DNA of 60,249 nt, filler included, from 7 parts of 7 records of this genome joined end to end with filler, not necessarily neighbours in it; one strand, 5' to 3'; shown: positions 55,531 through 60,029, numbered from the whole stretch's first letter. A program made the numbers and translations. Notes: generated by a model not told the origin, from the letters alone.

Positions 55531-55622
55531 AGGAGAAGAACCAATCGCGCCCCAACTGCTTCGGGGCCTGCGGAAAAACGGATGATTGATAAAAACAACG
55601 TCATGTATTGGAGGTTCACGAG

Positions 55623-56999
55623 ATGTTGGGTTTTCTAATCGGCTTGGCCGTCACGGCCGTCGTCGGCTATCTGATCGTCAAGAAGTACCAGCCCCACGCG
55701 GTTCTACTGATCGCCGGGCTTTTCCTTCTGGTCGCAACGGTGATCCTGTTCCCGGACACCTCGATCCTGTTCAAGAAGGCGAAGTCGACCGGCTGGGTCG
55801 GCTTTGACGTCTTCGCCTACGTCAAGGGATCCCTGGCCTATCGGGCAGCCGGTCTCGGCATGATCATCATGGCCGCCGGCGGTTTCGCCAAATACATGGA
55901 CCACATCGGCGCCACCGATGCCATGGTCGCGGTCTGCATCAAGCCGCTGAAGCTGCTGAAGGCGCCCTATCTGGTGCTGGCCCTCGGTTACGCGGTCGGC
56001 CAGGTCCTCAACATCTTCATTCCCAGCGCCGCCGGCCTCGCCATGCTGTTGCTGGTCACCTTCTATCCGACCCTGGTTAGGCTCGGCGTCAGCCGCGCCG
56101 CCGCCGCCGCCATGATCGGCACCACCGCGGTGCTCGACCTCGGCCCGGCTTCCGGCGCCTCCAACCTGGCGGCCAGGACCGCCGACCTTGATGTCGCCGT
56201 TTATTTCGCCAGCCATCAGGTTCCGGTCGCCATCTTCGCGATCCTGGCAATTTCGGTCCTGACCTATTTCACGGCCCGTTATTTCGACAAGCGCGACGGT
56301 CATGTCGTCACCATGGAAGACGGCCATGCCGAGGATGACGGAAACGGCGGCCTCAAGAAGGTGCCCGCCTTCTACGCCATCCTGCCGATGATCCCCCTGG
56401 CCCTGCTGCTGATCTTCAGCAAGCTGCTGATCAAGGACATCAAGATGGACGTGGTCACCGCCATGCTCATCGGCATGCTGCTCGGCATGCTCTGCGAGGC
56501 GATCCGCACCCGCGACATGCGCGCCGTGCTGAAGGGCATCATGGCCTTCTTCGACGGCATGGGTCACATGTTCGCCCGCATCGTTTCGCTGATCATCTGC
56601 GCCGAAACCTTCGCCGCCGGCCTCAAGACCATCGGCGCCGTCGGCTTCATGATCGCGACGGTTCAGGAGGCCGGCTTCGGCATCACCGTCATGACCCTGC
56701 TCATGTGCGGGATGGTTGCGGCGACCGCCATCATCACCGGTTCCGGCAACGCCGCCTTCTTCTCGTTCGGCAATCTGGTGCCCGATATCGCCACCAAATT
56801 CGGGGCGACGGCGGTCTCGATGCTGTTGCCGATGCAGTTGACGGCCGGTCTGGCCCGCTCGATGTCGCCGGTCGCCGGCGTCATCATCGCGGTCAGCGAC
56901 GCCGGCCAGTGTTCGCCCTTCGAAATCGTCCGGCGCACCGCGATCCCGGTCGCCGGCGGCCTGTTGGTCACCATCCTTTACAGCGTCATCTTCGTCTAG
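55623..56999 (+). CDS. dcuC: DcuC-family C4-dicarboxylate transporter
   Basis: GGAGG RBS; IMAAGGFAKYMDHIGA, LGPASG, GSGNAAFFSF, RSMSPVAG. Confidence 0.88.
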   Translation: MLGFLIGLAVTAVVGYLIVKKYQPHAVLLIAGLFLLVATVILFPDTSILFKKAKSTGWVGFDVFAYVKGSLAYRAAGLGMIIMAAGGFAKYMDHIGATDAMVAVCIKPLKLLKAPYLVLALGYAVGQVLNIFIPSAAGLAMLLLVTFYPTLVRLGVSRAAAAAMIGTTAVLDLGPASGASNLAARTADLDVAVYFASHQVPVAIFAILAISVLTYFTARYFDKRDGHVVTMEDGHAEDDGNGGLKKVPAFYAILPMIPLALLLIFSKLLIKDIKMDVVTAMLIGMLLGMLCEAIRTRDMRAVLKGIMAFFDGMGHMFARIVSLIICAETFAAGLKTIGAVGFMIATVQEAGFGITVMTLLMCGMVAATAIITGSGNAAFFSFGNLVPDIATKFGATAVSMLLPMQLTAGLARSMSPVAGVIIAVSDAGQCSPFEIVRRTAIPVAGGLLVTILYSVIFV

Positions 57000-57035
57000 A
57001 CGCTGCCAACCATAACCGTTCATCCCCCGTCCGAC

Positions 57036-57070
57036 GGCCGGGGCCCCTCGCGGGGCCCCGGTCTTTTTTT
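57036..57070 (+). terminator. Intrinsic terminator of dcuC
   Basis: GGCCGGGGCCCC-TCGC-GGGGCCCCGGTC-T7. Confidence 0.85.
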
Positions 57071-57088
57071 GGAAACCGGAAAATCGGC

Positions 57089-57124
57089 AAAAAAAGGGCC
57101 GGGCGGTGTCCAGCCGCCCGGCCT
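57089..57124 (-). terminator. Intrinsic terminator of asd
   Basis: 10-bp GGCCGGGCGG stem followed by T7 on the minus strand. Confidence 0.8.
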
Positions 57125-57151
57125 ATATTCCACCTCATTGTCCGGGAAGGC

Positions 57152-58183
57152 TTACGCCGCCTTCTTCATATAGCTTTTGATCAGTTCCTCGCCGATCTGC
57201 ACCGTGTTCAGCGCCGCCCCCTTGCGCAGGTTGTCCGATACGCACCAGAAGGCCAGGCCGTTCGGCACGGTCGGGTCCTTGCGGATGCGGCTGACATAGG
57301 TGGCGTCTTCACCGGCGCATTCGGCCGGAGTGACATAGCCCTCGTCGGCACGGTGATCGACGACGACGACGCCGGGCGCCTTGCGCAGCGCGGCGCGTGC
57401 CTCTTCATCGCTGATCGGACGCTCGAATTCGACGTGGATGGCCTCGCCGTGGCCGATGAAGGTCGGGATGCGCACGCAGGTGGCGAAAACGTCGATGTCC
57501 GGGTCCATGATCTTCTTGGTCTCGGCCACCATTTTCCACTCTTCCTTGGTCGACCCGTCGTCCATGAACTTGTCGATGTGCGGGATGGCGTTGAACGCGA
57601 TCTGCTTGGTGAACTTCTTGCGATGGCTTTCCGTCGCCTCGTTGGTGAAGATGCCGCGGGTCTGGTTGAACAGCTCGTCCATGGCTTCCTTGCCGGCGCC
57701 CGACGTCGACTGATAGGTCGCCACCACGACGCGCTTGATCTTGGCGATGTCATGCAGGGGTTTGAGCGCCACCACCATCTGAATGGTCGAACAGTTCGGA
57801 TTGGCGATGATGCCGCGCTTCTTGTAACCGGCGATGGCTTGCGGATTGACTTCCGGCACGACCAGCGGGATGTCCGGATCCATGCGGAAATACGACGTGT
57901 TGTCGATGACCACGGCGCCGGCCTTGGCCGCGATCGGCGCGAACTTGGACGAAACGCTGGCGCCCGGCGACGACAGCACGATGTCGGTCCCGGCAAAATC
58001 GTACTCGGCTAGGTTCTGGACCTTCAGCACCGCGTCCTCGCCGTATGAAATTTCGCGGCCGACCGACCGCTCGGACGCCAGCGCCACCATCTCGTCGGCG
58101 GGGAAATTGCGTTCGGCGGCAATCGACAGGATCTCGCGTCCCACGTTGCCGGTCGCGCCCATGACGGCGACTTTGTAACCCAT
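57152..58183 (-). CDS. asd: Aspartate-semialdehyde dehydrogenase
   Basis: MGYKVAVMGATGNVG, IIANPNCST, CVRIP...GHGE, DNLRKGAALN; start 58183 after GGGAG. Confidence 0.97.
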   Translation of the reverse strand: MGYKVAVMGATGNVGREILSIAAERNFPADEMVALASERSVGREISYGEDAVLKVQNLAEYDFAGTDIVLSSPGASVSSKFAPIAAKAGAVVIDNTSYFRMDPDIPLVVPEVNPQAIAGYKKRGIIANPNCSTIQMVVALKPLHDIAKIKRVVVATYQSTSGAGKEAMDELFNQTRGIFTNEATESHRKKFTKQIAFNAIPHIDKFMDDGSTKEEWKMVAETKKIMDPDIDVFATCVRIPTFIGHGEAIHVEFERPISDEEARAALRKAPGVVVVDHRADEGYVTPAECAGEDATYVSRIRKDPTVPNGLAFWCVSDNLRKGAALNTVQIGEELIKSYMKKAA

Positions 58184-58246
58184 TTTCTTGTTCTCCCGTT
58201 CAGTAGCGGCACCCATCGCCGCGATAACTCGTTGATCGAATGGCTC

Positions 58247-58287
58247 AAACAAAAAGCCCGCCGGATGTTTCGGCGGGCTTTTTGTTT
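58247..58287 (-). terminator. Attenuator terminator (3:4 hairpin) in the asd leader
   Basis: Perfect 17-bp inverted repeat AAACAAAAAGCCCGCCG-AAACATC-CGGCGGGCTTTTTGTTT, 63 nt before the asd start. Confidence 0.9.
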
Positions 58288-58316
58288 TGCCTGTGCAAAA
58301 CCTGTGCAGCCCGCCA

Positions 58317-58430
58317 TTACCCCGCGGTTTTTTTAGCCTTGGTAGTCGTGGTGGTGACGGTGGCGTGCGACGGCGCAACCCGCGAAAGGGGCGCCAAAGC
58401 CGCATACCTGTGAACGTGTTGAACCATCAT
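58317..58430 (-). CDS. Thr/Lys-rich leader peptide of asd (37 aa, MMVQHVHRYAALAPLSRVAPSHATVTTTTTKAKKTAG)
   Basis: GAGG RBS, tandem ATGs, 7 Thr and 3 Lys codons in the last 14 codons, stop directly followed by the antiterminator strand. Confidence 0.8.
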   Translation of the reverse strand: MMVQHVHRYAALAPLSRVAPSHATVTTTTTKAKKTAG

Positions 58431-58457
58431 GGTCCTCGCCATTTCCGTCGGCCGACA

Positions 58458-58486
58458 GCTTTAGCGGCTTGTCGGACAAATTTCAA
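58458..58486 (-). promoter_or_regulatory. Alphaproteobacterial-type sigma70 promoter for the leader-asd transcript
   Basis: (C)TTGAAA-N17-TAAAGC on the minus strand. Confidence 0.6.
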
Positions 58487-58526
58487 GCCGTAGCTTTCAT
58501 AAGGGGGATTTTTTGTCGCCAATCGC

Positions 58527-60029
58527 TCAAAACATCGCCCGGCCGCCGGTGACGATCTGCGCCTTCTGGTCGCGGCCATAGAGCCGCCGGGCGTAATAGG
58601 TCAGCGTATCGGCCAGATAGGCGTTGAGCTCGTCATAGCCGATGACGTTGTCGCCGTTGCCATAGGGTGCGCGGTCGGCCGCCCCCGACATGCCCATCAG
58701 GTAATATTTGGTGAACAGCCCGTTGGAACTGTCCTCTTCCCAGGACGCCACCTGGTCGGACTGCCCGGCCGCGATCACGGTCAGGTTGCCCGGCACTGGT
58801 GGCACCTTCGGCTGGATATAAATGCCGGATGCCTTTGAAACCACCGACCCCGACTGGCTGGCGCCGGAAAAGCACGCCTCCAGCACCACCGTGGTGCCGG
58901 CCGACGGCAGCTTGGCGAGATTGCGATAGAGCCGGCTCAGGGGATAGCCGTTCAATTCGATGCGCGAGGCATCGGCGTCCGCCGGCACCAGATAGGCGGT
59001 GCCGTCCGTCCCCGGTGCGCCGTGGCCGCTGTAATAAACCGTCACACGCGAACGCCCGTCCTTGACCCAATCGAACAGCTGTCCGTGAGGATCGGTTTCG
59101 CTGCCGAAGACCCGCGTCATCTGCGATCCCGTCGCGTCGCGCATGAAGATGATATTGCCTTCGCGCACGCCCAGGGCCTCGATGACATATTGGGTGAAGG
59201 CTTCGGTATCGGCATAGGCCGGCACGACGTCGGGGATGTCGGCGCCGTACTGGGCATAGTCGCCGTTGCCGATGATGACCGCGATGTCGTCGGCACGCTC
59301 GGCCGCTTCGACGTATTCGATGCGCAAGCCCGCCCGCGCGAAGCCGCGCTTTCGCGCCCCGTCGCGCCGGACCATGCGCCGGGCCATCTTCGCCGCCTTC
59401 GATCCGCCGCTGGCGTATTGGGCGATGTCCATGCCGGCGACCTCGCGGGCCCAGGCATCGGCCATCTTGCCCTGTGCCTGCGAAATCGCGTCGCCGAGGT
59501 AGCCGTTGAAATCCATGCCCATGGACAGGGGCACGTCATGCCGGCTCTGGGTTGTCGGGCTGCGCCACATTTCGGCCCCGTCGGCATCGATGGCGCGCAA
59601 ACTGCCGACCACCAGGGCGTGCTGCTGCGGCGCCATCAGACAGCCGAACTGGAAGCCGACGTCCGATATGCCCAACTCGAAGACGGCATCGAAGCGGTTG
59701 CGGTCCGCCGTCTGGTCGATAATCGTCACACGCTCGAACTGCCGGCGGAATCTATCCTCCAGCGTCGCCGCCAGGTTCTGGCCGTAATTGACCGGCGTGA
59801 ATGTGACGGCGCCGATGCAGGTGCCGGGAATCTCGTGGGCCGCAGTAAAGGCACGCGCCGCCTCGGGCAACAGGATCGCCACCTCGATGGGCTGCCGCTC
59901 GGCGCTGAACGCCGTCAGAGTCGGGGTCGTTTTCAAAGTGGGGGCGACGGCGACGCAGGCCGCCACGAACAGGCCGGCAGACACCAAAGCCACCAACCGG
60001 AGACCGAACTTGGGGATACGCATCGTCAA
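58527..60029 (-). CDS. Lipoprotein with a C-terminal caspase-like (peptidase C14) domain
   Basis: Lipobox VAA-C; AVIIGN.DY, YYSGHG (His), LEACFSG (Cys), GLFTKY. Confidence 0.82.
   Translation of the reverse strand: MTMRIPKFGLRLVALVSAGLFVAACVAVAPTLKTTPTLTAFSAERQPIEVAILLPEAARAFTAAHEIPGTCIGAVTFTPVNYGQNLAATLEDRFRRQFERVTIIDQTADRNRFDAVFELGISDVGFQFGCLMAPQQHALVVGSLRAIDADGAEMWRSPTTQSRHDVPLSMGMDFNGYLGDAISQAQGKMADAWAREVAGMDIAQYASGGSKAAKMARRMVRRDGARKRGFARAGLRIEYVEAAERADDIAVIIGNGDYAQYGADIPDVVPAYADTEAFTQYVIEALGVREGNIIFMRDATGSQMTRVFGSETDPHGQLFDWVKDGRSRVTVYYSGHGAPGTDGTAYLVPADADASRIELNGYPLSRLYRNLAKLPSAGTTVVLEACFSGASQSGSVVSKASGIYIQPKVPPVPGNLTVIAAGQSDQVASWEEDSSNGLFTKYYLMGMSGAADRAPYGNGDNVIGYDELNAYLADTLTYYARRLYGRDQKAQIVTGGRAMF

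Follow-up and report, generated by a model that had tools for sequence, protein, structure and literature searches.

We analysed a 60,249-nucleotide (nt) stretch of DNA (the window; seven parts of seven records of one genome, joined end to end with filler) and found on its minus strand, before asd, a real and conserved cis-regulatory element. Asd, the aspartate-semialdehyde dehydrogenase that this gene encodes, makes the last common precursor of lysine (by way of diaminopimelate) and of threonine, methionine and isoleucine. The leader of asd holds a short upstream open reading frame (uORF) that ends in a cluster of threonine and lysine codons, followed by a terminator hairpin whose 5′ arm can instead pair with a segment just after the uORF stop codon. 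A preliminary description had read this arrangement as an attenuator controlling asd through a Thr/Lys codon block, and in a sample of 151 genomes from the order to which the closest relative belongs the same layout recurred in 63, always preceding asd where the matches were inspected. On the sequence and comparative data below, the element is probably a ribosome-mediated leader-peptide transcription attenuator, and we lean towards the view that its control block senses lysine as well as threonine; a mixed sensor would fit the branch point, because Asd feeds both Lys and Thr/Met/Ile synthesis.

Coordinates are positions in the whole stretch, leader elements are read on the minus strand, and context beyond the window was drawn from relatives only. 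The features are as follows.

58481..58486, minus strand: putative −35 hexamer TTGAAA, from sequence reading; aligns with TTGAAT in the closest relative, L001
58458..58463, minus strand: putative −10 hexamer TAAAGC, weak, 17 nt past the −35 hexamer; aligned with TATGGC in L001
58434..58437, minus strand: Shine-Dalgarno-like GAGG; aligned with GCGAGA in L001
58317..58430, minus strand: leader-peptide uORF, 37 codons plus TAA, from sequence reading and the listing of open reading frames
58326..58361, minus strand: control block of seven Thr codons (ACC five times, ACG, ACT) and three Lys codons (AAG, AAA, AAA), from sequence reading
58308..58315, minus strand: region 2, GGCGGGCT, 5′ strand of the antiterminator, with one base between it and TAA
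58284..58301, minus strand: nested hairpin GTTTTGC-ACAG-GCAAAAC within the antiterminator loop, from sequence reading and fold
58271..58287, minus strand: region 3, an A tract plus GCCCGCCG, 5′ arm of the terminator, from sequence reading and folds
58247..58263, minus strand: region 4, CGGCGGGC plus TTTTTGTTT, 3′ arm of the terminator and U tract, from sequence reading and folds
58192..58197, minus strand: asd ribosome-binding site GGGAGA, 8 nt 5′ of the ATG at 58183
57152..58183, minus strand: asd, aspartate-semialdehyde dehydrogenase, 343 amino acids (P0001), with domains Semialdhyde_dh (PF01118) and Semialdhyde_dhC (PF02774)
57097..57123, minus strand: terminator-like hairpin 3′ of asd, from the terminator scan

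Reading the leader base by base, we recovered every anatomical element that had been listed for it: uORF, GAGG, codon tail, the GGCGGGCT/AGCCCGCC complementarity, nested stem and terminator. The last 14 codons before the TAA at 58319-58317 are ACC GTC ACC ACC ACG ACT ACC AAG GCT AAA AAA ACC GCG GGG, giving the tail T-V-TTTTT-K-A-KK-T-A-G, in which the seven Thr and three Lys codons fall within 12 consecutive codons that include no Ile codon. Alternative in-frame ATGs lie at 58442 and 58427, and the listed reading frame runs over 58317..58442 (41 amino acids); L001 has no counterpart of the 58442 ATG and its own ATG aligns with that at 58427. GAGG stands 3 nt from the ATG at 58430 and 6 nt from the one at 58427. 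Downstream of the stop codon, GGCGGGCT (58315-58308) is the exact complement of AGCCCGCC (58279-58272), which lies within region 3 and is the alternative partner of region 2, and the arms of the nested hairpin are GTTTTGC (58301-58295) and GCAAAAC (58290-58284). The terminator consists of AAACAAAAAGCCCGCCG (58287-71), the loop AAACATC (58264-58270) and CGGCGGGCTTTTTGTTT (58263-47). Its described length of 17 base pairs holds when A:U pairs are counted, and the U tract is there; the G+C core is 8 base pairs. The G+C hairpin spans 58278-58256 and is followed by TTTTTGTTT, and 7 of the 8 nt past it are U. From the U tract to the asd ATG at 58183 is about 63-65 nt, and the asd ribosome-binding site, roughly 50 nt past the hairpin, stays outside the minimum free energy (MFE) fold.

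The 231-nt leader folded more stably than shuffled sequences (z = −3.78), with the terminator included in its MFE structure. The stretch that begins at the stop codon and runs to the terminator loop folds into the antiterminator, that is, the helix between regions 2 and 3 (the 2:3 helix), at −26.3 kcal/mol and z = −6.15 against 100 shuffles. The leader terminator was absent from the listing of the consensus terminator scan and was found by a separate hairpin scan and the MFE fold; the probable reason for this miss is that the consensus scan takes the T run, which pairs with the A tract, as part of the stem.

We compared the window with 80 asd loci of species genomes, the nearest to its own and of Rhodospirillales type, among which the best relative shares 87% identity with the window asd, the maximum in this set. 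Fifteen of the 80 carry a Thr/Lys-rich uORF tail within 500 nt 5′ of asd (for example MLFMTTTTKKTKTLR, VVTTKTGKKTTTA and ATTTTTTTTTKAKKLPE), and in these 15 the tail ends 0-5 nt before (G)CGGGC, followed by GGCCCGC-loop-GCGGGCC. The positive loci include ones from Magnetospirillum, Telmatospirillum, Terasakiella, Magnetospira and Thalassospiraceae and differ in their upstream genes, which are of several kinds; scanning the 500 nt before asd gave no leader in Reyranella, Roseomonas, Azospirillum or Elioraea. A covariance model, R1, built from 16 sequences (the window and the 15 relatives), accounts for the 63 of 151 genomes given above (E ≤ 1e-5), nearly always with one match per genome. We inspected 64 of 65 R1 matches, the one omitted being an opposite-strand overlap of another match. 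Among 33 strong matches (57-97 bits; 30 from the order search and 3 from another search), asd lies 19-171 nt downstream in every case, and for the weaker matches (35-57.5 bits) the asd start falls within the fetched stretch in 32 of 34, the remaining two having a single open reading frame of 177 or 221 amino acids between leader and asd. The leader is exclusively linked to asd, in that all 64 inspected matches precede it. In a class-wide sample, just two of 151 genomes, including that of the query, hold true R1 matches, and a further four gave weak ones; R1 therefore describes an order-level family.

Some loci around this family deserve separate mention. The two with an extra reading frame, L240 (G081:C330:1-1909; 221 amino acids) and L241 (G062:C20:1020755-1023200; 177 amino acids), would represent a Thr/Lys/Val/Met leader controlling a two-gene unit, judging by their layout. 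Genome G048 has two leader-asd loci on separate contigs, L113 (G048:C51) and L225 (G048:C1), whose asd copies show 76% and 80% identity to the window asd and may be a paralogue pair or reflect a mixed assembly. Weak R1 matches of about 27-35 bits occurred outside asd loci. Of these, L086, L120, L121 and L125 were rejected as family members, each being the 3′ end of a gene with a terminator; L122 and L124 are apparently partial matches to the terminator only. We likewise set aside L123 (G241:C1:958410-961516, minus strand; 29 bits), a Thr/Lys-rich C-terminus of a longer frame that does not precede asd; the frame ends in ...GGHAETTTTTKTTTTTKTDAA followed by a terminator, and could be either a chance Thr/Lys-rich C-terminus or another kind of leader.

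The competing helices are kept across the family. The preliminary description had proposed an antiterminator formed by region 2 and the 5′ arm of the terminator around a nested stem, and this 2:3 pairing appears in the MFE structure of the stop-to-terminator-loop stretch in 38 of 38 distinct leaders (z −0.5 to −6.15, the window being strongest). In these 38 folded leaders the stop codon lies 0-6 nt 5′ of region 2, and most have a small hairpin of lineage-varying sequence inside the 2:3 helix, according to an uncounted reading of the folds. An exact copy of the hexamer of the terminator 3′ arm stands within 16 nt of the stop codon in 33 of the 38; five Terasakiella-like leaders have the 2:3 pairing in a different register. 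Helix statistics were taken from a model-fitted alignment of 69 distinct sequences, which is biased towards the model: 93.1% of 478 cells are paired in the 2:3 helix, against 28-65% when the helix is slid, and 96.7% of 483 cells in the terminator (3:4) helix, against 30-56%. After the hairpin, 29 of 38 leaders have at least four U in 8 nt.

A group of 15-codon leaders (the MLFMTTTTKKTKTLR type; L005, L007, L010, L015 and L020, and L091-L096) keeps both the 2:3 and the 3:4 helix, with GAAGTCGTAT replacing the U tract after the hairpin (for example L005:1313-1503); the first five of these loci have a further hairpin directly next to the ribosome-binding site of asd.

Similar switches with different letters were found further away, among 80 asd upstream regions of the class-wide sample that we screened for a Thr/Lys-rich uORF (7 of 80 flagged). 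L127, L131 and L135 have such a uORF and a post-stop segment that can pair with the 5′ arm of a terminator, with helix letters such as GCGGCC/GGCCGC and AGCTTG/CAAGCT in contrast to the GCGGGC/GCCCGC of the family, and L181 is probably a fourth deeper relative with the same switch. The flag on L129 was false, and L189 and L197, also flagged, show no clear terminator switch. On the sequences compared, these deeper relatives are better evidence of selection on pairing than the compensatory changes within the family.

The codon block is conserved too. Conservation of a Thr/Lys-rich uORF in relatives had been set as a test of the attenuator, and a uORF ending in a Thr/Lys tail is present in all 38 distinct leaders. 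Thr accounts for 44% and Lys for 17.7% of their last 14 codons, and Ala comes third at 8.3%; for comparison, the window Asd protein has 5.2% Thr and 7.0% Lys. Each of the 38 has at least four Thr and at least one Lys codon and 34 have at least two Lys; of the 129 residues in the Thr block that are not Thr, 82 are Lys. Synonymous codons are mixed (Thr: ACC 161, ACG 45, ACT 20, ACA 8; Lys: AAA 55, AAG 39), which points to selection on the decoded amino acid and not on the RNA letters. The N-terminal 20-25 residues of the peptides are unrelated among relatives and the length varies from 15 to about 42 codons, while the tail is kept. Because codons interchange and N-termini and lengths vary, the conserved property is which tRNAs are requested and where the ribosome stops. 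Among the weaker R1 matches, 31 of 34 also have at least four Thr and at least one Lys codon. Met codons (as in MTKTMKKTTT) or Ile codons join the block in some lineages, and these amino acids too are products of the Asd branch, Met being its third product family. One Met-containing lineage (L217, L227, L229, L231, L235 and L237; tails such as MTKTMKKTTTGG and QTAKTVKKTTTGD) has CCGGGG as region 2 instead of GCGGGC.

The 2:3 and 3:4 helices are mutually exclusive, and we infer from the sequence how uORF translation, hairpin termination and a response to Thr and to Lys would be coupled to them. Transcription would begin 5′ of the uORF, and a ribosome would translate the 37-codon leader. When charged Thr-tRNA and Lys-tRNA are plentiful, it would reach the TAA, where its footprint would cover GGCGGGCT; with region 2 masked, region 3 would pair with region 4, and the hairpin and U tract would end the transcript about 65 nt before asd. 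A shortage of charged tRNA-Thr or tRNA-Lys would stall the ribosome within the block of 7 Thr and 3 Lys codons, 9-42 nt short of the stop codon, leaving region 2 free to pair with region 3, aided by the nested hairpin; no terminator would form, and asd would be transcribed. A ribosome covers about 12-13 nt 3′ of its A site, and the spacing in the window fits this footprint: region 2 would be free while the A site holds any Thr or Lys codon of the block and covered once TAA enters it.

The best match of the leader in Rfam 15 is Thr_leader (RF00506), the leader of the Escherichia coli and gammaproteobacterial thr operon (thrL), aligned over the full model (1-118) at 40.0 bits (E 8.5e-6). The likeness to thrL that had been noted from the sequence is real in the covariance alignment, but the score stays below the gathering cut-off of 55 bits. 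The palindromic hairpin by itself gives the opposite strand 32.5 bits, and most of the score is therefore due to the terminator. Of 14 relatives scanned, five score 34.1-44.6 bits with Thr_leader and none reaches 55; no other Rfam family matched in the 14. The element is a family without an Rfam 15 entry. It shares with thrL a run of Thr codons in the leader peptide, a G+C-rich stretch at the stop codon as a rival partner for the 5′ arm of the terminator, and the terminator form AAAAAGCCCGC...GCGGGCTTTTT. It differs in controlling asd rather than thrABC (thrA), in having Lys and not Ile as the second residue, in the length of its peptide (37 codons, compared with about 21 in thrL) and in that the comparison within its family yielded no conserved helix between regions 1 and 2.

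The statement in the preliminary description that no Lys-codon attenuator on asd was known to have been described proved too strong, as a Thr/Lys uORF before an asd-type gene of Sinorhizobium meliloti is in print. Hadjeras et al. (2023; PMC10117765) report a uORF, SEP5, in the 5′ untranslated region of that gene, with six Thr and three Lys codons clustered near its 3′ end (compared with seven and three in the window); SEP5 is translated, according to ribosome profiling and Western blot, is proposed as ‘possibly a leader peptide’ and is stated to be conserved in Sinorhizobium only. Both are alphaproteobacterial uORFs directly before an asd-type gene. The main text of PMC10117765 describes no terminator, antiterminator or RNA switch, and the window family belongs to another order; the likeness rests on the published description, not on sequence comparison. 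With true R1 matches in 2 of 151 class-wide genomes, the window element and SEP5 would at least not be close. SEP5 aside, our literature search, which did not extend to Vitreschak et al. (2004) or the supplements of PMC10117765, found no attenuator read through Lys codons. PMC12612679 (asd as a target of SgrS), PMC8079986 (asd as the name of a small RNA) and PMC12925634 (Vibrio thrL) proved unrelated to the element, and passages on aspartate, lysine or threonine were not found in PMC2965389.

Like the attenuators of trp, his, leu and ilv operons, including S. meliloti rnTrpL/peTrpL, the asd leader would let the position of a ribosome on a uORF choose between antiterminator and terminator; unlike them, it would respond, at the enzyme where a pathway branches, to two of that pathway's end products. 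The lysine riboswitch (L-box, RF00168) also exerts Lys-dependent control of the aspartate pathway by premature termination, but here the sensor would be a translating ribosome and not a ligand-binding RNA. RF00168 was not among the 36 Rfam matches with E ≤ 10 in 57900-58800, and it was found in none of five carrier genomes searched, while four control genomes matched.

Several observations weigh against an attenuator of this kind. The preliminary description had included a protector helix between region 1, the Thr-codon run, and region 2; this 1:2 helix is present in the window MFE structure, but its energy is no better than that of shuffles (z = −0.24), and across the family the stretch from uORF start to region 2 folds no better than shuffles (z −2.74 to +1.84), so we rejected it as a conserved feature. 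Without translation, the antiterminator should form by default, unlike in trp. The stems had been expected to covary, and although pairing is kept at the levels given above, compensatory changes amount to just 5 cells in two pairs for 2:3 and 5 cells in three pairs for 3:4. They are few because both helices are almost invariant; this is conservation, which common ancestry alone could maintain, rather than strong covariation. In the 15-codon MLF..TTTTKKTKTL. group (nine of 38 leaders) the U tract is missing, with at most three U in the 8 nt past the hairpin, and judging from these sequences a textbook intrinsic terminator cannot be the read-out in this subgroup. The three weaker R1 matches outside the 31 have two or three Thr with two or three Lys codons, and Lys codons could serve a purpose other than sensing. 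At the 5′ end, the TTGAAA and TAAAGC hexamers stand where the promoter had been placed, 17 nt apart and with similar hexamers in L001, but the consensus scan of 57000-58800 called no promoter and they stay putative; the Shine-Dalgarno distance for the ATG at 58430 is short; and no terminator was found by the scan between the stop of the upstream caspase-domain gene (58527) and the leader. With no promoter called and no terminator after 58527, some asd transcripts may originate upstream.

The best-surviving alternative is that the leader is an attenuator for threonine only, its Lys codons being kept for other reasons, for instance as A-rich spacers that leave the block unstructured, or for ribosome speed. 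Thr is by far the commonest residue of the tails, single Lys codons occur in four of 38 leaders, in L113 the run is purely TTTTTT, with no Lys except upstream of it, and the nearest Rfam model is a Thr leader. However, at least one Lys codon occurs in every one of the 38 leaders, Lys prevails among the non-Thr residues of the block, and AAA interchanges with AAG. Thr and Lys recur together in the deeper relatives despite different helix letters and in the S. meliloti uORF (PMC10117765); the residues added in some lineages, Met and Ile, are likewise made from the product of Asd; and carrier genomes yielded no lysine riboswitch. We regard a Thr-only sensor as unlikely.

Sensing of Thr and Lys by a ribosome might instead be read out by something other than intrinsic termination, such as RNA stability, access of Rho or translation of asd. 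The nine leaders without a U tract and the second hairpin beside the asd ribosome-binding site in L005, L007, L010, L015 and L020 would suit such a mechanism. Against it, the window hairpin is a canonical terminator, its 8-base-pair G+C core extended by A:U pairs and followed by 7 U in 8 nt, most leaders have U-rich sequence at this place, and the asd ribosome-binding site of the window lies well past the hairpin and outside its fold. We give this a slim chance.

Slimmer still is the chance that the uORF encodes a small protein with its own function, or that the leader RNA acts in trans, the link to asd being secondary. The S. meliloti counterpart is detectable as a small protein, and trans functions of the RNA and peptide of the S. 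meliloti trp attenuator are cited in the same paper (PMC10117765); in the window family, by contrast, only the Thr/Lys tail and the position of the stop codon are conserved in peptides of 15 to about 42 residues with variable N-termini, and a function of this sort would in any case be compatible with attenuation. Finally, a chance arrangement, in which a meaningless uORF precedes the terminator of the caspase-domain gene, could draw on the lack of a terminator of that gene's own before the leader and on the Thr_leader score of the opposite strand, but it has next to no probability and is already contradicted by the comparative sequence data: the hairpin lies 240 nt beyond the stop codon of that gene, uORF, GCGGGC and hairpin precede asd in lineages with different upstream genes, and the stop codon keeps its place just before region 2.

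If the attenuator reading holds, a textbook mechanism acts at a new control point, and mixed Thr and Lys codons offer a simple way for one gene to answer two end products. To our knowledge, little is established about how Alphaproteobacteria adjust the Asd step, and the element would provide a testable account of how control can respond to Lys in bacteria that lack a lysine riboswitch. R1 could enter RNA family libraries and would then annotate an otherwise empty 340-nt gap in many genomes of the order; the carriers include cultivable genera (Magnetospirillum, Terasakiella and Telmatospirillum). The mechanism itself is classical and was already hinted at in print for one genus, in a one-sentence suggestion on S. 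meliloti (PMC10117765); what is new is a family absent from Rfam, a variant of a well-known mechanism.

A broader view, to which we give an even chance, is that the Lys codons are true sensors and that the element is one branch of a widespread, undescribed group of asd leaders through which one translating ribosome integrates, at the branch-point enzyme, two to four aspartate-pathway products (Thr and Lys, with Met or Ile in some lineages). If this is true, the leader would be the first shown case of attenuation through Lys codons and would take the place of the lysine riboswitch in Alphaproteobacteria, where the genomes searched gave none; the helices would have been rewritten by lineage (GCGGGC/GCCCGC, GCGGCC/GGCCGC, AGCTTG/CAAGCT) under a constant codon logic. 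By analogy with the trp attenuator RNA of S. meliloti, the terminated leader RNA of about 190 nt might also act in trans.

Around the leader, asd looks monocistronic, given the hairpin at 57097..57123. Two terminator-like hairpins stand back to back at 57036-57123, between asd on the minus strand and a convergent gene for a DcuC-family C4-dicarboxylate carrier (55608-56999, plus strand). The gene upstream of the leader (58527-60029, minus strand) encodes a protein of 500 amino acids that has a hydrophobic N-terminal stretch and a caspase (Peptidase_C14) domain, and a homologous C-terminus at the same place in L001 points to a shared neighbourhood.

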